Assembly (NCBI GenBank): GCA_040222015.1
Contig: JAVJWO010000130.1
Coordinates: 95,956-159,955 of the forward strand
From: Coleofasciculus chthonoplastes F2-STO-03
GTDB lineage: Bacteria; Cyanobacteriota; Cyanobacteriia; Cyanobacteriales; Coleofasciculaceae
Reading direction: 5' to 3'
DNA: 64,000 nucleotides
The position numbers and the translations under genes are program-made. This document shows, in pieces, positions 3,447 through 12,078 of this stretch. Positions within the stretch are counted from its first letter, which is position 1, and the number at the start of each line of letters is the position of its first letter. The notes below the pieces were generated by a model. It ran no database searches and was not told the origin of the DNA. It worked only from the letters and a program-made list of their open reading frames with translations.

Positions 3447-4154
3447 ATGAGTTTAAAGGCAGTTCTGTTTGATTTCAACGGCGTGATTATCAACGATGAG
3501 TCGATTCATCAGCAACTCATCGAAGACATTCTGCTGGGCGAAAATCTGCGTCCCTCGGCGTCGGATTACTGGGAGGATTGTTTGGGGCGTAGCGATCGCG
3601 CTTGCTTAAAAGTATTATTGGAGAAACGAGGTCGGGTGGTGAGTGATGACGACTTAACCCGTTTAATCTCCCGAAAAGCCGACGCCTACCGCCGTCAACT
3701 GGAATCTCTATCTGAATTACCCATATATCCGGGAGTCGAAGATTTAATTTACAAAATCCGCGTGGCTCAATTACCCATGGGAGTGGTGAGTGGTGCTTTG
3801 CGACAGGAAGTTGAGTTAGTCTTGGATCGGGCTAACCTATTGCAATATTTTCCGGTTATTGTGGCAGGTGATGACATCAAGGTGAGTAAACCGGAACCGG
3901 ATGGCTATCTGTTAGCGGTGGAACGCCTCAATCAGCAGTTTCCAGAACTTAATGCCAAATCCTCAGATTGTCTCGCTATAGAAGATACACCGGCGGGTAT
4001 TGAAGCCGCCAAACGAGCCGGGATGCAAGTCGTCGGCGTTGCTAATACCTATCCCTTCCACATGCTTCAGCGTCAAGCCGATTGGACGGTTGATTATCTG
4101 CATCAGCTTGAACTTGAACGAGTGCAGGAAGTTTATGCTCAAGTTGTGGGTTAG
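3447..4154 (+). CDS. HAD-family phosphatase (CbbY/Gph-like)
   Basis: FDFNGVI motif I variant, SKPEPDGY, IEDTPAGIEAAKRAGM. Confidence 0.9.
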   Translation: MSLKAVLFDFNGVIINDESIHQQLIEDILLGENLRPSASDYWEDCLGRSDRACLKVLLEKRGRVVSDDDLTRLISRKADAYRRQLESLSELPIYPGVEDLIYKIRVAQLPMGVVSGALRQEVELVLDRANLLQYFPVIVAGDDIKVSKPEPDGYLLAVERLNQQFPELNAKSSDCLAIEDTPAGIEAAKRAGMQVVGVANTYPFHMLQRQADWTVDYLHQLELERVQEVYAQVVG

Positions 4155-4219
4155 TAACCATGAGCCATGAATCATGAACTATAAACCAATACCCGCAAGT
4201 GTTACAATAAACCTAGTCC

Positions 4220-4292
4220 GGGGAATTAGCTCAGTTGGTAGAGCGCTGCGATCGCACCGCAGAGGTCACCGGTTCAAATCCGGTATTCTCCA
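4220..4292 (+). tRNA. tRNA-Ala (anticodon CGC)
   Basis: GGGGAATTAGCTCAGTTGGTAGAGCG...CTGCG-ATCGCAC-CGCAG...GGTTCAAATCC...ATTCTCCA; the cloverleaf folds and a G3:U70 pair is present. Confidence 0.96.
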
Positions 4293-4322
4293 TTTGTGTC
4301 GATTGCCACATTATTTGTCATT

Positions 4323-4428
4323 TATAGCAATAGACACATCGATTAGGACGTTCGGCACCATTGTAGAGACGCGCCATGGCGCGTCTCTACATAAATGATG
4401 TGTCCTAACAGCCATGGCGGTTGCTATA
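4323..4428. mobile_element. 106-bp MITE-like element, copy 1 (TATAGC...GCTATA ends)
   Basis: Imperfect terminal inverted repeats with TA ends and internal TTAGGAC/GTCCTAA; carries the GTAGAGACGCGCCATGGCGCGTCTCTAC palindrome. Identical copy at 20491-20596. Confidence 0.85.
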
Positions 4429-4600
4429 AATCCTTCACGCAAAACTTCAGTGAAAGTTGTAGGGGCGTTGGTTGCCCGATCAAAAGCCGATACCGTCGGA
4501 GTAAAATACTCAATGGAAGAGTTGCAGCTCGGTGGCGATGATGGTCGTTTGCATCCCAATCGGCGAGAATTGAAATCCTGAGTGATTTAGCGTTAGAGCT

Positions 4601-7600
4601 ATGAATGCAGTCGAAATCGAAGAAGCCGTTTCCCAACTCGCTGAAGCTCCCTTTGACCCAGAGGAGTTTCCTTTTGCCTTCCTTGAAGCGTTTGGAAATA
4701 AGAAAACGACGATTAAACGGCTCAAGAGTCAGCGCAACAGTACCAACAAATCTGATCTGGATGGGGTTCTCCAGCGCAACAATATCCACATTAAGGTTTG
4801 CCTAGAAGGGGAAGTCACCGATACCCTCACGGCTTTGCGGGAGAGTCCAGCGACTGCTAAACAAAAGGCAAAGTTTATCTTAGCGACAGATGGCAAAAGC
4901 CTGGAAGCGGAAAATTTAGCTGATGGAGAAACTATTGTCTGTGACTATCCTGAGTTTCATAACCATTTTGGTTTCTTTTTACCGTTGGCGGGGATTACGA
5001 CGGTTAAGCAAATTCGGGAAAATGCCTTTGATATTAAGGCGACAGGGCGACTCAATAAACTCTACGTCGAACTGCTCAATGAAAACCCCGACTGGGACAG
5101 CGCAGAACGTCGGGAGGAACTCAACCATTTGATGGCTCGGCTGATTTTCTGCTTTTTCGCCGAAGATACGAATATTTTTTACAGTAATAATTTATTCACC
5201 GATACCATCGCGCAGATGAGTGCGGGGGATTCGTCGAATACCCATGAGGTGCTAGAGGAGCTATTTCGGGCAATGGCAACCCCGCTCAAGCAACGGGAAA
5301 AGGCAGGAATCCGCAACTGGGCGAATGGCTTTCCCTATGTGAATGGGGGGCTGTTTAGTCCTCACCCCCTAACCCCTTCTCCTCTCTCCCCATCTGGGAG
5401 AGGGGCTGGGGGTGAGGGTAATAGTTTAGGAAAATACCCCCATCCCCTAGCCCCTTCCCCCAAGCAGAGGGAAGGGGGACAAGAGACTATGAGTGAGGGC
5501 AAATACTGGGAGATTCCCCCTGCACTCAAGAAAAAAATGACCGAAGTTGCTCGTCAGTTCCGCAAGGAACCTACTCCTAGTGAAAAGATCCTCTGGCAAG
5601 CTCTGCGGGGACGCAAACTAGAAGGACGAAAATTTCGACGACAACAGCCTATTGGCGCATTTATTGTTGATTTCTTTTGTGGAGCAGAACGGCTAATTGT
5701 GGAGGTGGATGGAGGTATCCATCAATCACAGCAAGAGGCGGACCAACAGCGTCAGGAGTTGTTGGAGTCGTTAGGACTCAAGGTTGTTCGGGTTTCGAGT
5801 GAGTTGGTGGAGACGAATTTAGCTGAGGCTTTGGCAGTCGTGCGTCAGGGGTTTAGCCCCCATCCCCTAACCCCTTCCCCCAAGCAGGGGGAAGGGGGAC
5901 AAGAAACTCCGACTCCCCTCTCCCCATCTGGGAGAGGGGCTGGGGGTGAGGGTCTTATCGTGCCACGTTTTAGCCGGATTGCTCGATCTTACTTGCTTCA
6001 TGTAGGCAATCTCGACTGGACGAAGATCAACCCGGATATTTTCGGCTCGATGATTCAGGCGGTGGCAGATGAAGACGAGCGCGGGGCGTTGGGGATGCAC
6101 TATACCAGTGTGCCGAATATCCTCAAGGTGCTGAATCCGTTGTTTTTGGATGATTTGCGCGAGCAACTGGCAGCAGCCGGGGATAATGGGCGTAAGTTGC
6201 TGAATCTGCGGAAACGGCTGGCACGGATTCGGGTGTTTGACCCCGCTTGTGGGTCGGGTAATTTTTTGGTGATTGCCTATAAGGAAATGCGGGCAATTGA
6301 GGCGGAGATTAACCAGCGCCGGGGGGAGGCGGATCGGGCTTCGGAGATTCCCTTGACGAATTTTCGGGGAATTGAGATTCGGCATTTTTCCTGTGAGATT
6401 GCGCGGTTGGCGTTGATTATTGCCGAGTATCAGTGTGATGTGTTGTATCGGGGGCAACGGTTGGCGTTGGCGGAGTTTTTGCCCTTGAAGGCGGAGAATT
6501 GGATCACCTGTGGAAATGCGTTGCGGTTGGATTGGTTGAGTTTGTGTCCGCCGACGGATAAGGGGGTGAGGGTGCAACGGGAGGATTTGGATTTGTGGCA
6601 GGAAACGCGGGATGAGGCAGAGATTGAGTTTGAGAATGAGGGGGGAGAAACTTATATTTGTGGGAATCCGCCTTACTTGGGTTCAACGTGGCAATCGAAG
6701 GAACAAAAAGCAGAAATCAGAGACGTAGTAAATAATAGGACTAAATCACCTGGTTTTTTAGATTATGTTTCCGGTTGGTTTATCAAAGCAGCAGACTGGT
6801 TGCAGCATTCTGAGGGTCGCGCTGCATTTGTGTCTACTAATTCAATCTGTCAAGGGCAAATGGTGCCTTTACTCTGGCAAATCATTTGGAATGCCGATTG
6901 CGAAATCTTATTTGCCCATACTTCATTCAAATGGTCAAACCTTGCAAGTCATAATGCCGGGGTTACTGTCGCTATCGTTTGTATAGGTCGTACATCAAAC
7001 GATCAAAAGGCTTTATTTGAAATAGATCAGTATGGAAAAACATCTGTAAGACTAGGTTCAGCAATTAATCCTTATTTGACATTTGGTAACTTCGTTATCG
7101 TCAAGAAGACTACTAAACCAATCTCTAAACGTGCAGTTATGGAATTTGGAAATAAACCAAGTGACGGAGGAAATCTTCTCGTCTCGCGAGAAGAGATAAA
7201 CAATCTGGGTTTAAGCACCGAGCAGAAGAGACGATTCCTAAGAACTATCGTCGGCTCTGGCGATTTCATTAATGGGAATTCTAGATACTGTATTTGGATT
7301 GAGGATTCGCATTTAGAAGAAGCACTTTCCATTGAACCTATTGCTAGACGAGTTGAATTAGTTAGGAAGATACGGTTAGCTAGTCGAGATAAAGGAGCAA
7401 ATGCTCTTGCACAAAGGGCGCATCAATTAAAGTTGATGAGGATAGGGAAGCAAAGTAGTATCGTAGTTCCAGCAGTTTCATCTGAGCGCAGGAACTACTT
7501 ACCCGCAGGTCTGATTGATAGAAATACGACAATTACAAATGCTGCCTTCGCTCTCTACGATGCTCCACTTTGGAACATGGCAATCATCGCCTCCCGCCTT

Positions 7601-7957
7601 CACCTCGTCTGGATTGCCACCGTCTGCGGTAAACTTGAAACCCGATATCGCTACTCCAACACCCTTGGCTGGAACACCTTCCCCGTCCCCACCCTCACCG
7701 AACAAAACAAAACCGACCTCACCTGTTGTGCTGAAGACATCCTCCTGGCGCGGGAACAGTATTTCCCTGCTACCATTGCCGATATGTACGACCCAGAGCG
7801 CATGGACAAAGAGTTTCCCCTAGTGCGAGAAGCCCATGAACGCAATGATGAAGTGCTAGAGCGCATTTACATCGGTCGTCGCTTCAAAAACGATACCGAA
7901 CGCTTAGAGAAACTGTTTGAGCTTTATACGAAAATGACCGCGCCGAAATCTTCCTAA
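4601..7957 (+). CDS. YeeA/MmeI-family N6-adenine DNA methyltransferase with in-frame DUF559 insertion
   Basis: Motif I VFDPACGSGNFL, motif IV GNPPY, GMHYTS, C-terminal TRD and RFKNDTERLEKLFELY typical of YeeA/MmeI-like proteins. Confidence 0.9.
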   Translation: MNAVEIEEAVSQLAEAPFDPEEFPFAFLEAFGNKKTTIKRLKSQRNSTNKSDLDGVLQRNNIHIKVCLEGEVTDTLTALRESPATAKQKAKFILATDGKSLEAENLADGETIVCDYPEFHNHFGFFLPLAGITTVKQIRENAFDIKATGRLNKLYVELLNENPDWDSAERREELNHLMARLIFCFFAEDTNIFYSNNLFTDTIAQMSAGDSSNTHEVLEELFRAMATPLKQREKAGIRNWANGFPYVNGGLFSPHPLTPSPLSPSGRGAGGEGNSLGKYPHPLAPSPKQREGGQETMSEGKYWEIPPALKKKMTEVARQFRKEPTPSEKILWQALRGRKLEGRKFRRQQPIGAFIVDFFCGAERLIVEVDGGIHQSQQEADQQRQELLESLGLKVVRVSSELVETNLAEALAVVRQGFSPHPLTPSPKQGEGGQETPTPLSPSGRGAGGEGLIVPRFSRIARSYLLHVGNLDWTKINPDIFGSMIQAVADEDERGALGMHYTSVPNILKVLNPLFLDDLREQLAAAGDNGRKLLNLRKRLARIRVFDPACGSGNFLVIAYKEMRAIEAEINQRRGEADRASEIPLTNFRGIEIRHFSCEIARLALIIAEYQCDVLYRGQRLALAEFLPLKAENWITCGNALRLDWLSLCPPTDKGVRVQREDLDLWQETRDEAEIEFENEGGETYICGNPPYLGSTWQSKEQKAEIRDVVNNRTKSPGFLDYVSGWFIKAADWLQHSEGRAAFVSTNSICQGQMVPLLWQIIWNADCEILFAHTSFKWSNLASHNAGVTVAIVCIGRTSNDQKALFEIDQYGKTSVRLGSAINPYLTFGNFVIVKKTTKPISKRAVMEFGNKPSDGGNLLVSREEINNLGLSTEQKRRFLRTIVGSGDFINGNSRYCIWIEDSHLEEALSIEPIARRVELVRKIRLASRDKGANALAQRAHQLKLMRIGKQSSIVVPAVSSERRNYLPAGLIDRNTTITNAAFALYDAPLWNMAIIASRLHLVWIATVCGKLETRYRYSNTLGWNTFPVPTLTEQNKTDLTCCAEDILLAREQYFPATIADMYDPERMDKEFPLVREAHERNDEVLERIYIGRRFKNDTERLEKLFELYTKMTAPKSS
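5360..5953 (+). mobile_element. In-frame cassette: DUF559 (Vsr-like) endonuclease flanked by GC-rich palindromic repeats
   Basis: ARQFRKEPTPSEKILWQALR...KFRRQQPIGAFIVDFFC...LIVEVDGGIH is DUF559. Both sides carry CCTCACCCC...GGGGTGAGGG palindromes, translated as PHPLTPSP...GRGAGGEG. Internal ATG at 5489. Confidence 0.85.
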
Positions 7958-7968
7958 ACGTAGTATTC

Positions 7969-8075
7969 GCCCTCATCCCCCAGCCCCTTCTCCCAATCTG
8001 GGAGAAGGGGAGCAAGAAGGAGAATCTGTTTCAAAGTCCCTCTCCTGTTTTGGGAGAGGGATTTAGGGTGAGGGC
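7969..8075. repeat. Free-standing copy of the CCCTCA..TGAGGG composite palindromic repeat
   Basis: GCCCTCATCCCCCAGCCCCTTCTCCCAATCTGGGAGAAGGGG...CCCTCTCC...GGGAGAGGGATTTAGGGTGAGGGC; same architecture as the repeats flanking DUF559. Confidence 0.85.
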
Positions 8076-8077
8076 AA

Positions 8078-8644
8078 TCAGAAAGCAATGTCTTCGTACA
8101 GGTTAGTCAACTCGGCTTCAAACTCAAGGCTAGTCAGGTGAAAAGTGTTGTGACTGGGGGCATAGAATTGAAATAACCACAGCCCTTCCTCGGTACGACG
8201 GTAACAGTCTACCCGTTGCTGTCTGGTACTAATCAAGACATATTCTTGCAGACTGTCGAGGGTTTGATAGTCGATGAATTTATCCCCTCGGTCAAAGGCT
8301 TCGGTGGAGTCAGAGAGGACTTCAATGATTAGTTTGGGATAACGCTTATAGGTAGTAGTTTCTGCGTCGCGGGGGTCACAAGTCACCATCAAATCAGGAT
8401 AGTAGTAACAGTTGCACTCTTCAAGTCTGGCTTTGACATCGGCAAAATAGACGCGACAGTCTGACCCCCGTAAATGGCTACGAATCAGCGTAACAAGGTT
8501 GATAGCAATAGTATTATGAGCATCGGTTGTCCCCGCCATAGCATAGGCTTCACCATTGCGATATTCGTGTTTGGTGTCGCTGGTGGCTTCGAGTTGGAGG
8601 TATTCGTCAGGAGAGAGGTAATAATTGTCTGGGGTAGCAATCAT
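8078..8644 (-). CDS. Uma2-family (DUF820) endonuclease
   Basis: YYYPDLMVTCD, LIIEVLSDSTEAFDRGDKF, LQEYVLI. Confidence 0.92.
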   Translation of the reverse strand: MIATPDNYYLSPDEYLQLEATSDTKHEYRNGEAYAMAGTTDAHNTIAINLVTLIRSHLRGSDCRVYFADVKARLEECNCYYYPDLMVTCDPRDAETTTYKRYPKLIIEVLSDSTEAFDRGDKFIDYQTLDSLQEYVLISTRQQRVDCYRRTEEGLWLFQFYAPSHNTFHLTSLEFEAELTNLYEDIAF

Positions 8645-8808
8645 GGATGAGGAAGGGGCGAATTGGGTACAGTCCTGTTTTTAATTTAGTTCAAAAAGCG
8701 CAATGCATTCAGCAGGCTACGCCTACGCGCCTCCAACAGCAAGTCAAGCCCAATTTCAATCAGGGCAAATGATAAAATTAAACCAGTTTCTTCGCGTTAA
8801 ACTAGCCA

Positions 8809-9048
8809 ATGCTAACCCTAGACCAACTCATTGCCGAAGCCACTGCCCTCCCTGATGCTGACAAAGCAATCCTGATTGATAAACTGACAGCAAGCATGGA
8901 CGAACAACGCACTGCTTCAAAAACCGCAAGCATTCCTCCCGGTACTCTCACCCAACTTCGAGGTATCGCTAAACGTTCTAGAAAAACCCCCAGCGATAAA
9001 GAACTGCAAGCAGAGTACACCGATTATTTAGTTCAAAAATATCAGTAA
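8809..9048 (+). CDS. Small hypothetical protein, antitoxin-like
   Basis: 79 aa, ending PSDKELQAEYTDYLVQKYQ, in a TA neighbourhood; the 5' 160 bp are duplicated at 14490-14649. Confidence 0.65.
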   Translation: MLTLDQLIAEATALPDADKAILIDKLTASMDEQRTASKTASIPPGTLTQLRGIAKRSRKTPSDKELQAEYTDYLVQKYQ

Positions 9049-9056
9049 CCTTTCTC

Positions 9057-9374
9057 GTGAAAATTCTCATTGATACCATTGCCGAATTCTGTCGCAAATG
9101 GAACGTTATCGAATTTGCGCTATTTGGCTCTGTTTTGCGTGATGATTTTCGCCCAGACAGCGACATCGACGTTATGGTGAAATTTCACCCTGACGCTCAT
9201 CCCAAATTCAGCACCCTAGACCAAATGGAAGGGGAACTGAGGACAATCTTTGACCGGGATGTGGATTTAGTGACTCGCCCTGGGGTTGAAGCCAGTCGTA
9301 ATTATTTACGTCGTAATACCATCCTCTCCTCTGCTCAGGTGATTTATGCAACGAAATCTCCAATTTCTGCTTGA
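9057..9374 (+). CDS. Minimal nucleotidyltransferase (MNT antitoxin)
   Basis: ALFGSVLRDDFRPDSDIDVMV = GS...DxD nucleotidyltransferase motif. Confidence 0.9.
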   Translation: MKILIDTIAEFCRKWNVIEFALFGSVLRDDFRPDSDIDVMVKFHPDAHPKFSTLDQMEGELRTIFDRDVDLVTRPGVEASRNYLRRNTILSSAQVIYATKSPISA

Positions 9375-9419
9375 TATGCTGCAATCGGCGGAGTTGATCG
9401 AAATCTATATCGCCCAATG
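9346..9419 (+). pseudogene. HEPN/DUF86 toxin N-terminal stub
   Basis: MQRNLQFLLDMLQSAELIEIYIAQ resembles a DUF86 N-terminus overlapping the MNT stop; similarity ends where the DUF4258 ATG begins. Confidence 0.65.
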
Positions 9420-9749
9420 GCTACGCTACTTACAGAAATACGTCAGAAATTTGCTGAGGAACGGTTTGAATTTTCCAAACACGCTGTCGATCAATCCATC
9501 TTACGAAAAATTCGAGTTCAAGAAATCAGAGAAGTGATTGCCAATGGTCAAATTATTGAGGACTACCCAGAAGATAAATACGGTCCTAGTTGTTTAATTT
9601 TAGGTTTGACAGCGATGAAACGTCCGCTTCACATTCAGTGCAGTTATCCTACCCGTTCACTGGTCAAAATTATTACACTATACGAACCCAACCCCCAAAA
9701 ATGGAATAACAACTTTACGCAAAGGAGACTAAATAGCGATGACGCCTAA
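9417..9749 (+). CDS. DUF4258 domain protein (putative RelE-like toxin)
   Basis: FSKHAVDQ...IIEDYPEDKYGPSCLILG...RPLHIQCS...IITLYEP. Confidence 0.88.
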   Translation: MATLLTEIRQKFAEERFEFSKHAVDQSILRKIRVQEIREVIANGQIIEDYPEDKYGPSCLILGLTAMKRPLHIQCSYPTRSLVKIITLYEPNPQKWNNNFTQRRLNSDDA

Positions 9750-9972
9750 CTCACAAGCAGCTTATGTTGAGAAACAAGTAACCTACACCTTAAATCTGAA
9801 TGGTCAAATTATTGTGATCGAAAACGTCCCTGCCCGTGTTAATGAAGAAACAGGGGAACAGTTTTTCTCCCCCTCAACCGTAGAACGTTTACAACAGACC
9901 CTTTTAGATCACCCAGAACCCGACCATTTTATCCGCGTTCCGGTGTACAACTATTCAAAAAATGTAGCATAA
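9739..9972 (+). CDS. YgiT-type/MqsA-like antitoxin (Cys-less variant)
   Basis: VTYTL...IVIENVPARVNEETGEQFFSPSTVERLQ; overlaps the DUF4258 gene. Confidence 0.85.
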   Translation: MTPNSQAAYVEKQVTYTLNLNGQIIVIENVPARVNEETGEQFFSPSTVERLQQTLLDHPEPDHFIRVPVYNYSKNVA

Positions 9973-9996
9973 ATCCTCTGCCAAAAAATTTCTCCC

Positions 9997-12078
9997 TTGC
10001 CCATGACCAAACCTAACACCATTCCCGCCGTTTCCGTCACCTACGCCCAAGCTGGTACTTCCACTCGCCTCAATGAACTAGGGATGCGCCCGATGCAGGA
10101 ACGGGCTTACCAAAAGCGGGGAGAACAATACCTGTTGATTAAATCCCCCCCTGCCTCTGGTAAAAGTCGCGCCCTGATGTTCATCGCCCTGGATAAGCTC
10201 GAAAACCAGGGATTACAACAAGCCATTATCGTTGTCCCTGAAAAGTCCATCGGGGCAAGTTTTCACAATGAACCCTTGAGTCAGTTTGGCTTCTGGGCAG
10301 ATTGGCAAGTTGAACCCAAGTGGAACCTCTGCGACGCACCTGGAACCGATGGGGGTAAGGTCGATGCAGTTCGGAAATTCCTTGATAGTGAAGCGAAAGT
10401 GCTGGTCTGTACCCATGCCACCTTTCGCTTTGCCGTGGATAAATTCGGCGTGGAAGCCCTGGATAACCGCTTAATTGCCGTCGATGAGTTTCACCACATT
10501 TCCGCCAACCCCGACAACAAATTAGGCGATATTATACGTCAACTGATGACCCGCGACAAAACCCACATTGTCGCCATGACGGGTTCTTATTTTCGCGGGG
10601 ATGCCGAAGCGGTGCTACATCCTGATGATGAGGCGAGATTTGATACCGTCACCTACACCTATTACGAACAACTCAACGGCTATCAATACCTCAAACAACT
10701 GGATATCGGCTACTACTTCTATGCAGGAAGCTACACCGACGCAATCATGGAGGTACTCAATCCCCAGGAGAAGACCATTATCCACATCCCCAATGTCAAC
10801 TCCCGCGAAAGTACCAAAGATAAAATCCGCGAAGTCGAACACATCATCGAGGAACTAGGAGAATGGCAAGGAACTGACCCCGCAACCGGGTTTCAACTCG
10901 TACAAACCGCCGATGGTAAACTCTTGAAGATTGCCGACCTCGTAGACGACGACCCCAGCAAGCGAGATAAGGTCACGGCTAGTCTGAAAGACCCCAGCCA
11001 GAAAAATAAGCGCGATCGCGTGGATATCATTATCGCCCTGGGTATGGCAAAAGAAGGCTTCGACTGGATTTGGTGCGAACACGCCCTTACCATCGGCTAT
11101 CGTTCCAGCCTCACCGAGATTGTCCAAATCATCGGTCGCGCCACCCGTGATGCCCCAGGGAAAACCCGCGCCCGTTTCACCAACCTCATCGCTGAACCGG
11201 ATGCCAGCGAAACTGCCGTCACCGAGGCAGTCAACGACACCCTCAAAGCCATTGCTGCCAGCCTCTTGATGGAACAGGTACTTGCCCCCCGCTTCGAGTT
11301 CAAACCCAAAAACCCCAACAATCAACCCACTCCAGGCTTTGACTACGGAGAAAATGGCTACAATCCCCAGGGGTGTAATGTGGGAGTCAATGCAGAAACG
11401 GGACAAATTCAACTGGAAATTAAAGGACTCGCTGAACCCAAAAGCCAGGAAGCCCAACGGGTTTGTCGGGAGGACTTAACCGAACTGGTGACAGCTTTTG
11501 TCCAAGATAAGCCCACCATCGAGCGGGGCTTGTTCGATGAAGAACTGGTGCCAGAAGAACTGACCCAGGTGCGGATGGGCAAAATTATCAAAGAGAAATT
11601 TCCCAACTTTGAACACGAGGATCAAGAAGCAGTTCGCCAACACGCGATCGCGGCGCTTAACCTCGTCCAACAAGCCAAGCAAACCGTAAATGAAAAGGGT
11701 GGGACGTATAATGTAAATCCCCGTGAGGTTGAAGGGACGAAAAACACCGCCCTCATCGACGGAATCAGGCAGTTCGCCCTCTCGGTCACGGAACTGGACA
11801 TGGATTTGATTGATCGCATCAATCCCTTTGGGGAAGCCTACGCCATTCTAGCTAAGTCCATGAGCGAAGAACGGCTCAAGCAAGTCGCAGCAGTCATTGC
11901 TGCCAAGCGGGTCAGCCTCTCGGTTGATGAAGCCAGAGAACTCGCCAAACGCGCCGTGCGATTCAAGCAGGAACGGGGGCGATTACCCTCCCTCACGGCA
12001 ACTGACCCCTGGGAAAAACGCATGGCAGAAGGGGTGGCATTCCTGCAACGTAAAGTGAAGGAGGAAAACAATGGTTAA
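9997..12078 (+). CDS. YeeB-like SF2 DEAD/DEAH helicase
   Basis: Walker A SPPASGKS, DEFHH, MTGS, MAKEGFD, QIIGRATR; likely ATG start at 10003. Confidence 0.9.
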   Translation: MPMTKPNTIPAVSVTYAQAGTSTRLNELGMRPMQERAYQKRGEQYLLIKSPPASGKSRALMFIALDKLENQGLQQAIIVVPEKSIGASFHNEPLSQFGFWADWQVEPKWNLCDAPGTDGGKVDAVRKFLDSEAKVLVCTHATFRFAVDKFGVEALDNRLIAVDEFHHISANPDNKLGDIIRQLMTRDKTHIVAMTGSYFRGDAEAVLHPDDEARFDTVTYTYYEQLNGYQYLKQLDIGYYFYAGSYTDAIMEVLNPQEKTIIHIPNVNSRESTKDKIREVEHIIEELGEWQGTDPATGFQLVQTADGKLLKIADLVDDDPSKRDKVTASLKDPSQKNKRDRVDIIIALGMAKEGFDWIWCEHALTIGYRSSLTEIVQIIGRATRDAPGKTRARFTNLIAEPDASETAVTEAVNDTLKAIAASLLMEQVLAPRFEFKPKNPNNQPTPGFDYGENGYNPQGCNVGVNAETGQIQLEIKGLAEPKSQEAQRVCREDLTELVTAFVQDKPTIERGLFDEELVPEELTQVRMGKIIKEKFPNFEHEDQEAVRQHAIAALNLVQQAKQTVNEKGGTYNVNPREVEGTKNTALIDGIRQFALSVTELDMDLIDRINPFGEAYAILAKSMSEERLKQVAAVIAAKRVSLSVDEARELAKRAVRFKQERGRLPSLTATDPWEKRMAEGVAFLQRKVKEENNG

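Follow-up and report, generated by a model that had tools for sequence, protein, structure and literature searches.

A 64,000-nt stretch of the Coleofasciculus chthonoplastes F2-STO-03 genome (contig JAVJWO010000130.1, positions 95,956 to 159,955 of the forward strand; hereafter, the window) contains a gene of the MmeI family in whose reading frame a small DUF559 nuclease is embedded between copies of a translated palindromic repeat. The insert is likely a mobile DUF559 cassette, copied into particular sites of restriction and methylase genes and lost from them by recombination between its flanking repeats. The module is best read as combining features of homing endonucleases with those of in-frame palindromic elements, such as the Rickettsia palindromic elements (RPEs). 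The features of the window to which the text refers are listed below.

4601..7957, plus strand: host gene, an MmeI-family (type IIL-like) restriction-modification (RM)/methyltransferase open reading frame (ORF) of 1118 aa, stop-free, which holds the insert
5360..5953, plus strand: whole in-frame insert, 594 nt, 198 codons, host residues 254-451, no stop
5360..5419, plus strand: left repeat copy A (families D1, D3 and D4), which has CCTCACCCCC / GGGGGTGAGGG as outer arms, contains hairpin 2 and is missing the right arm of hairpin 1; translates as PHPLTPSPLSPSGRGAGGEG
5384..5419, plus strand: left copy of the exact 36-bp direct repeat (family D1), with its partner at 5918-5953 and a spacing of 534 nt
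5437..5488, plus strand: left repeat copy B (family D2), with the outer left arm and hairpin 1 and without hairpin 2
5489..5491, plus strand: in-frame ATG ahead of the DUF559 core, not conserved among orthologues
5507..5854, plus strand: DUF559 (Vsr-like PD-(D/E)XK) nuclease core, 116 codons, WEIPP...VVRQGF, Pfam PF04480
5857..5953, plus strand: complete right repeat copy (families D1-D4, inverted repeats I1 and I3), with the outer left arm, hairpin 1, spacer, hairpin 2 and outer right arm; translates as PHPLTPSPKQGEGGQETPTPLSPSGRGAGGEG
~7964..8078, plus strand: solo copy of the composite palindrome family just 3' of the host stop, matching D1-D4 at 61-77% identity and containing hairpins I8 and I14

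The insert sits between ...FPYVNGGLFS and LIVPRFSRIARSYL. On its left side, the incomplete repeat copies A and B are separated by a 17-nt spacer; the complete copy on the right has an outer stem, CCCCCATCCCC ... GGGGGTGAGGG, around two inner hairpins. The exact 36-bp repeat can be extended to 39 nt at 95% identity (5384-5422 and 5918-5956, the first 36 nt being exact), and a second direct pair of 52 nt at 94% identity (5437-5488 and 5857-5908) has a spacing of 420 nt. Both spacings, 534 and 420 nt, are multiples of three, so the host frame survives a deletion between the copies. Read in the host frame, the C-rich arms of the repeat encode mainly Pro, Ser and Leu, and the G-rich arms encode Gly, Glu and Arg, which gives peptides of the PHPLTPSP...GRGAGGEG type. 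The initial annotation, made from the sequence of the window, had described the stop-free insert of 198 codons, the composite GC-rich palindromes on both of its sides, the exact 36-bp repeat spaced 534 nt apart and the solo copy just after the gene. All of these were found, together with the second pair of direct repeats.

The same annotation treated the host as a DNA methyltransferase, and this had to be corrected, because Pfam reveals a five-domain enzyme of the MmeI family. All five MmeI domains exceed the Pfam cut-off and follow the order of MmeI, with the nuclease lying among them (MmeI_N 1-160, MmeI_hel 172-252, DUF559 312-412, MmeI_Mtase 524-807, MmeI_TRD 831-1032, MmeI_C 1035-1114). 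In a phmmer comparison, host residues 90-252 align with residues 108-262 of the MmeI chain 5HR4. By this alignment, the insertion point corresponds approximately to MmeI residue 262 and lies within the helical spacer, which comprises residues 156-300 according to the accessible text of PMC4833311.

The main evidence for a mobile module is the polymorphism of the insertion site. A search with host residues 100-620 was performed, and 114 of the 120 homologues listed, which span several cyanobacterial genera by their source names, have a readable site. Forty-six of these sites are empty, 33 contain only repeats and 35 contain DUF559 together with repeats; the opposite picture, in which homologues uniformly carry DUF559 without repeats, did not hold. 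In the empty alleles, NGGLF is followed by 5-9 residues, mostly SGGVE, SGSVE or SGGVA, and then by VPRF. The expectation of the initial annotation that only a few residues normally join GGLF and VPRF was thus borne out in 46 of the 114 readable orthologues, and the empty alleles for which it proposed to search among close relatives by alignment do exist. One of them, P0049, bears the same genus label as the near-identical matches of the window, and its N-terminal side is 93.6% identical to the window protein. Repeat-only alleles contain one to three repeat units without a nuclease.

At the DNA level, the empty-site sequence codes NGGLFSGGVEVPRF, and the empty sites of ten other genomes read approximately TCG GGC GGG GTG GAA GTG CCG. 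The empty site of G061 reads TCGGGGGGTGAGGGC, which is the outer right arm of the repeat itself. In two genomes, degenerate outer arms are retained and a different palindromic family is nested within them. Presence/absence polymorphism at one exact site of a conserved gene, a hallmark of homing elements, was found both here and in HsdR, as described below. It can also be noted that in the Limnospira alleles the nuclease is preceded by as many as six 36-residue units in tandem and followed by as many as eight, resulting in a protein of 1545 aa. The number of these units varies by strain in P0001, P0002 and P0008 (Limnospira/Arthrospira labels), with lengths from 1341 to 1545 aa, all in frame, and one genome with such a label has the gene in two pieces (P0124 and P0038), divided within or close to the nuclease.

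A host tree of 108 sequences was constructed with FastTree from the 253 aa that precede the site and the 330 aa that follow it, leaving out the insert (584 columns; unrooted, no bootstrap). The three states are intermixed on this tree. The presence of DUF559 requires at least 20 changes, 16 of which are forced by branches with support of at least 95. Filled and repeat-only alleles are close sisters in P0035/P0071, P0030/P0058, P0023/P0051 and the Limnospira alleles/P0055, several of them being near-identical, and P0014/P0118 is a filled/empty sister pair. The filled/empty sisters and the scattered position of the filled alleles suggest repeated entry at the same site, a reading that we keep conditional because the host tree is unrooted and has no bootstrap.

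The clearest single case is the pair P0009 and P0039. P0039 corresponds to P0009 minus DUF559: their N-terminal sides are 99.2% identical over 250 aa, and they share the same idiosyncratic repeat flanks. The breakpoint falls within the repeated peptide PHPLTPSPK, and the missing stretch is exactly that between the left and the right PHPLTPSPK. Comparison of these two alleles indicates that P0039 arose when the flanking repeats recombined and the nuclease was thereby removed in frame. The in-frame removal that had been predicted for the window gene has therefore a natural counterpart; however, the repeats involved correspond to the pair with the 420-nt spacing and not to the 534-nt pair on which the prediction was based.

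The genome of F2-STO-03 contains four DUF559 genes: the window copy, a copy within HsdR, and two free-standing ones. The HsdR gene (C179:84514-88317, L036:4515-8318, 1268 aa) belongs to an hsdM-hsdS-hsdR operon, and its module is in frame directly before WHTQGSGKS (Walker A). Its flanks are direct copies of another variant of the palindromic repeat, with extra tandem sub-repeats on the left. One of the free-standing genes is located 1.2 kb downstream of an Eco57I/MmeI-like gene (C52:98933-103903, L040, 1156 aa). The latter gene itself has three separate in-frame repeat insertions, one of which is just before GNPPF. A 327-aa ORF with a remnant of a target recognition domain (TRD) overlaps its end, and the free DUF559 gene that follows has a repeat-coded N-terminus.

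Further in-frame insertions were found among 41 related genomes. DUF559 is located inside the methylase domain of an MmeI-type enzyme in G031, after the TRD in G028 and G010, before the methylase of an Eco57I-type enzyme in G017, and at the orthologous MmeI and HsdR sites in G002 and G003. Longer proteins containing the window DUF559 were also surveyed; by design, this survey excluded free-standing genes, and about half of the 120 proteins listed are orthologues of the window gene. According to a manual count of Pfam families, 103 of these hosts have a methylase or RM family (MmeI-type, Eco57I, N6_Mtase, PF01555 or DUF1156), one is an SNF2-type helicase, two have other domains and 14 have none. 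Among the matches listed, the DUF559 of PF01555 methylases is 83-91% identical to the window copy. PSP...GEG peptides flank the core in all 17 inspected proteins with a recognisable core, and at least six families of host proteins contain the module, at differing positions. The search for other in-frame DUF559 insertions proposed in the initial annotation has thus succeeded in HsdR, in Eco57I-type, PF01555 and DUF1156 proteins, in a helicase, and at other positions of MmeI-type enzymes.

The HsdR site also exists in several states. In the 85 readable sequences of the 120 listed, 47 are empty, five contain only repeats, 26 are filled at the Walker A site, and seven are filled approximately 50 aa upstream. 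Filled HsdR proteins with 47-56% identity are labelled Spirochaetia and Halobacteriota archaeon; they have flanks of the palindrome type and are known from proteins alone. Separately, the metagenomic Eco57I-type protein P0121 (1538 aa) contains two tandem DUF559 modules and about 35 residues of duplicated host sequence, which suggests duplication of the module together with its target.

A mechanism consistent with these data can be outlined as follows. The module would consist of a nuclease ORF that has a copy of a translatable palindrome at either end and that enters permissive loops of DNA-modification and restriction proteins in frame. Gain might proceed with a filled allele or paralogue as the donor, by gene conversion or by repair of a double-strand break, the homology being provided by the repeats or by the repeat-like GGGGTG target; copying across either of them would need no special enzyme. 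The least certain step is the start of the gain, which might be made by the DUF559 nuclease itself, as in homing. Loss would occur by recombination between the repeats and would leave solo repeats behind.

The insert encodes a complete DUF559 nuclease core. PF04480 is matched with a score of 105.2 bits in the host protein and 108.7 bits in the insert alone, the cut-off being 20.6, and the match covers positions 2-102 of the 109 in the profile. In a phmmer search of the PDB, the 'endonuclease-like protein' 3HRL was matched at E = 7.9e-19 with query residues 31-118; it was the sole match at E <= 1, and 3R3P was not retrieved. The DUF559 core has 116 aa in all 35 filled orthologues, and Pfam detects no additional domain beside it. 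In 31 filled orthologues, no variation occurs at the D of VDFFCG, at either acidic residue of E.DG, at the H that comes next or at a D further on; by analogy with the family, these D/E/D/H residues are presumably catalytic. When the core is compared with that of the same-genus orthologue in G003, dN (nonsynonymous divergence) is 0.008 and dS (synonymous divergence) is 0.358, a ratio of 0.02; in comparison with the paralogues, synonymous sites are saturated. This ratio shows strong purifying selection on the embedded nuclease. Among orthologues, the core has diverged less than the host flanks (mean p-distance 0.139 versus 0.195), and the two distances are correlated (r = 0.64, n = 31).

The initial annotation had considered the insert to encode a complete nuclease with its own start codon. 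The first part stands; the second does not, since the ATG at 5489 is absent from the orthologues, in which KYWE, QYWE or EYWE directly follows the repeat. As the internal ATG is not conserved, the predicted product is a single host protein that includes the nuclease. In the full-length AlphaFold model (51-row alignment; mean pLDDT, the predicted local distance difference test, 56; pTM, the predicted template modelling score, 0.31), residues 248-305 and 419-460 are coil with pLDDT <50, and the DUF559 core has an alpha/beta pattern at pLDDT ~47-69. The repeat-coded PSP...GEG stretches are predicted to be disordered linkers on which the nuclease domain loops out, a picture to which this model lends weak support.

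Several considerations weigh against a mobile cassette. All gains and losses were deduced by comparing alleles on the unrooted tree without bootstrap, and movement was not directly seen; in most pairs, gain and loss are indistinguishable. A single old insertion followed by many losses and by allele exchange would explain much of the pattern. Both flanking repeat copies are intact after insertion, so a classical homing target is not destroyed. A DUF559 of 116 aa without a separate DNA-binding region is unlike the characterised Vsr-like homing enzymes, as far as these are described in the accessible text of PMC3239194. The listed hosts are all DNA-modification, restriction or helicase proteins, and such a restriction is unexpected for an element that merely follows dispersed repeats. 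The strong purifying selection, like the higher conservation of the nuclease relative to its host, is also compatible with a domain that benefits the host, and the looping out on disordered linkers gains little from a full-length model that is poor.

Some of these points lead directly to a serious alternative, namely, that DUF559 is a domesticated domain retained for the benefit of the host enzyme, with flexible linkers derived from the repeats and no mobility of its own. The benefit might be, for example, a second strand-cutting site or a repair nick at the target of the enzyme, and patchiness would arise via recombination, allele exchange and deletion. The dN/dS value of 0.02 and a core that is more conserved than the host and diverges together with it are to be expected for such a domain, as is its production as a fusion, given the non-conserved internal ATG. 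The nature of the hosts among the matches listed and the presence of DUF559 at the same place of HsdR in proteins labelled Spirochaetia and Halobacteriota, at 47-56% identity, point in the same direction. According to the accessible text of PMC4833311, MmeI cuts both strands only as two molecules, and so a second nuclease could matter. However, three states coexist at one site, with at least 16 well-supported changes between presence and absence, and near-identical host alleles differ by the module alone. One nuclease subfamily (83-91% identity) occurs in unrelated hosts and at different positions, some of them inside a catalytic domain (G031). Palindromic flanks are present in every case inspected, and free-standing copies are flanked by repeats too. 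We therefore regard domestication without mobility as unlikely, although it overlaps partly with the mobile cassette and both can be partly true.

The relation between the repeats and DUF559 was considered separately. The 23-nt arm motif has 118 copies in this genome, compared to one for the reversed control. The genome has 126 repeat clusters. The sequence within 150 bp of them makes up only 0.6% of the genome, yet all four DUF559 genes are within ~100 bp of a cluster; these values exceed what chance would produce. No other small family of ORFs in the vicinity of the clusters has, like DUF559, all of its genomic copies adjacent to them. The other recurrent neighbours (haemagglutinin-like proteins, NACHT/pentapeptide proteins, sensor kinases, Ser/Thr kinases and WD40 proteins) belong to large paralogous families and were judged incidental. 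Eleven of the 126 clusters are inside open frames of at least 250 aa with at least 60 aa open on both sides. In related genomes, 21 of 28 DUF559 loci have a GC-rich hairpin within 200 bp, ten of them on both sides, and the density of hairpins is 3.9 per kb beside these loci versus 0.15 per kb further away, a 26-fold difference. The co-occurrence of DUF559 with the palindromes, which had been proposed for counting, is therefore real. Across the 41 genomes, the correlation between motif copies and the presence of DUF559 is weakly positive, confounded by kinship, and has clear exceptions. G026 has 53 copies of the motif and no DUF559 match (it is 96% complete, and many of its contigs end in a repeat), G006 has 19 copies and no DUF559, and G011, G013, G025, G030 and G033 contain DUF559 and no copy of the motif.

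These counts bear on the proposal of the initial annotation that the module is a REPtron-like unit, by analogy with repetitive extragenic palindromic (REP) sequences and their REP-associated tyrosine transposases (RAYTs). In this case, DUF559 would multiply the palindromes; the DUF559 copies would be autonomous, and the ~120 solo repeats would be non-autonomous derivatives. The adjacency of all four DUF559 genes to repeats that adjoin 0.6% of the genome, the 26-fold hairpin enrichment in relatives and the singular position of DUF559 among the small families agree with it. So does the arrangement of many arm copies as inverted doublets about 29 nt apart, which resembles REPINs, the REP doublets of bacterial genomes. 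A RAYT was rejected as the mobiliser of the PSP/GEG family, given that none of the 16 places with Y1_Tnp (17 matches) is within 600 bp of a cluster and that the RAYT-like genes have other REPs; this, too, agrees with the proposal. Nevertheless, DUF559 as the catalyst that spreads the palindromes is not supported, because the motif and the nuclease occur without each other in the seven genomes named above and the correlation of copy number is confounded by kinship. The flanks of the module are direct copies, contrary to the inverted layout of REPs that the proposal implies. In addition, a PD-(D/E)XK nuclease alone is not known to have strand-transfer chemistry. Multiplication of the palindromes by DUF559 is, on balance, improbable.

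Several observations on the palindromes of this genome can be added. Inverted doublets of the 23-nt arm, 29 nt apart, are found, for example, at C4:40755-40806, C23:48091-48142, C33:27868-27919 and C181:33147-33198, and some copies are arranged in tandem as triplets with a 30-nt interval (C201:17378-17460). Five RAYT-like Y1 transposase genes (C28:52250, C18:49787, C134:44284, C157:25491 and C207:2322) have REP families of their own, such as GTAGGTTGGGTT..., GTAGGGGCGGGTTT... and CCGTAGGGTGCGTTAACG...; these five loci are classical REPtrons unrelated to the PSP/GEG repeats. One RAYT-type REP is located upstream of the free DUF559 gene on C165. A shorter palindrome family, read as PPSLAGKGAGGLGF or similar, occurs in frame in large non-RM proteins of the NACHT/WD40 type and others (C28, C69, C90, C119 and C176), in which DUF559 was not seen. 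In-frame palindromes are therefore not confined to restriction genes.

The junctions of the insert are supported by independent sequence data. Contigs of the public run X1 tile the region (4900-5413, 5390-5947 and 5924-6500, with depths of 22.6, 20.2 and 21.4); the contig 5390-5947 has no differences from the window, and the contigs break only at the 36-bp repeat. Three further DNA runs and four RNA libraries contain relatives with the same arrangement of host and insert. One contig from an RNA library of a relative (X18 record 25, 4900-5849) runs unbroken from the host through the left repeats to DUF559, with DNA carry-over being possible. Empty alleles are present in the same RNA runs. The low-depth joints 5355 -> 5977 and 5356 -> 5960 in the RNA runs X15 and X16, both from relatives, were read as empty alleles. 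A low-depth joint 5418 -> 5914 in run X5 also comes from a relative. No contig of X1 joins across the insert, as far as contigs, in which rare variants are not visible, can indicate.

A spliced element was looked for as well. Pfam finds no Hint or other intein family at E <= 0.01; the insert begins with Pro254 and ends with GGEG, without a terminal His-Asn, and no Cys, Ser or Thr occupies the splice positions, because Pro follows Ser253 and Leu-Ile-Val follows the insert. The remark of the initial annotation that intein motifs are missing was correct. An Rfam scan of 4100-8700 at E <= 1 yielded a tRNA and sub-threshold matches to hairpin-like miRNAs only, and a group I or group II intron was rejected. 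Although the conserved motif region of a DNA enzyme is a frequent place for inteins and intron homing genes, and the HsdR site directly precedes the Walker A motif, it is extremely improbable that the insert is a spliced element or an assembly artefact, since the host frame is open over 198 codons, the open frame is retained in 35 orthologues, and the junctions agree in independent contigs of four DNA runs and in RNA-library contigs.

As for the host enzyme, its methylase motifs, VFDPACGSGNFL (DPACGSGNFL, the S-adenosylmethionine-binding, or AdoMet, motif) and ICGNPPYLG (the catalytic NPPY), are invariant across 51 aligned homologues. The nuclease catalytic residues of MmeI are D70, E80 and K82 in the accessible text of PMC4833311. 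By spacing, the N-terminal nuclease candidate of the host is D52...H63-I-K65, compared to D70...E80-M-K82 in MmeI; the 5HR4 alignment stops short of these residues. His63, in place of the Glu of MmeI, and the neighbouring candidate positions are nearly invariant in the 51 homologues. The host's own N-terminal nuclease may be altered or inactive.

A tRNA-Ala(CGC) gene is located directly upstream of the host gene (4220-4292); its anticodon arm includes the cyanobacterial HIP1 palindrome GCGATCGC, and it is followed by a perfect 28-nt palindrome of the GTAG type, GTAGAGACGCGCCATGGCGCGTCTCTAC, at 4363-4390. The tRNA-Ala gene and the 28-nt palindrome are a typical island border. Downstream of the host gene, the region 8078-12078 encodes a Uma2-family putative endonuclease on the minus strand, a nucleotidyltransferase (NTP_transf_2) and DUF4258 as a pair resembling a toxin-antitoxin module, and a DEAD/ResIII helicase of 693 aa. 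With these neighbours, the host gene appears to lie in a defence island.

If the module is mobile, it represents a third way, beside introns and inteins, for a nuclease gene to inhabit an essential reading frame, and one in which the module remains in the protein, tethered by linkers made from its own palindromic ends. This would account for the gain and loss of nuclease domains by defence enzymes and for the annotation 'very-short-patch-repair endonuclease' on many restriction and methylase genes of cyanobacteria, and DUF559, a large family of unknown function, would receive a function. A broader generalisation can be offered only tentatively, as it may well prove too far-reaching: DUF559 modules would be distinct selfish 'domain cassettes' that move without splicing, carry PSP...GEG linkers and colonise the RM, methylase and helicase genes of bacteria and archaea, borrowing the DNA binding of the host and reshuffling defence nucleases, and the solo palindromes would be their footprints or non-autonomous derivatives. 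As a practical matter, comparison of the empty, repeat-only and filled alleles shows where MmeI-type and HsdR enzymes have loops that tolerate insertion, and such loops could serve protein engineering. The tandem 36-residue units, located in the helical spacer, may alter the geometry of the enzyme; in MmeI, this spacer presumably contributes to the cutting distance.

The insert is likely mobile and of a previously undescribed kind, its translation being predicted to occur within the host protein. The arrangement is not described in the open-access full-text literature on DUF559, in-frame cyanobacterial palindromes, Vsr/HsdR and EDxHD enzymes, as far as its accessible article texts go, supplements being outside the scope. 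The host resembles MmeI in its five-domain architecture, and the insert is placed in a loop where MmeI has its helical spacer; unlike the host, MmeI has no inserted domain there. The closest nucleases are the Vsr-like (EDxHD) homing endonucleases, such as I-Bth0305I: in both cases, small Vsr-like PD-(D/E)XK nucleases are found inside conserved genes of DNA metabolism, with a patchy distribution at one site. In the accessible text of PMC9403480, which deals with Thermosynechococcus, a DUF559 gene is already identified with the Vsr-like homing family. In the accessible text of PMC3239194, EDxHD homing enzymes have an N-terminal NUMOD or helix-turn-helix (HTH) DNA-binding region and reside in group I introns or split inteins or are free-standing. 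The window module has neither the NUMOD/HTH region nor the intron or intein residence. Enzymes of the I-Bth0305I type are spliced out of the host product, whereas the module described here is unspliced, in frame, flanked by palindromes and without a DNA-binding region.

The repeats, in turn, can be compared with RPEs and intragenic MITEs (miniature transposable elements with inverted repeats), which the accessible text of PMC10969869 presents as multi-copy short palindromes that are in frame and translated and leave the protein intact. The PSP/GEG family is likewise multi-copy, occurs in ORFs and keeps the frame, with repeat-only alleles at both the MmeI and the HsdR site. RPEs contain no enzyme gene, whereas the repeats here come as a pair with a conserved nuclease ORF between them, and this composite is located in genes for restriction enzymes, methylases and helicases. 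REP/RAYT systems (REPtrons and REPINs) share with the module a single-copy enzyme gene flanked by dispersed palindromes and frequent inverted doublets. They are based on a Y1 transposase of the HUH type, with extragenic REPs of its own family as inverted flanks; the window module contains DUF559, no Y1 transposase gene, and direct flanks.

Inteins with a homing endonuclease are similar in being in-frame nuclease modules at conserved sites of DNA enzymes, with empty alleles and nuclease-free forms, mini-inteins in their case and repeat-only alleles in ours. They possess a Hint domain and splice residues, whereas the module has neither and is predicted to stay in the mature protein. Finally, the loss of the nuclease in P0039 relative to P0009 recalls the formation of solo long terminal repeats (LTRs), in which the internal part is lost between direct repeats and one copy is left. 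The difference is that here the spacing of the repeats (420 and 534 nt) is a multiple of three, and the frame of the host is kept.

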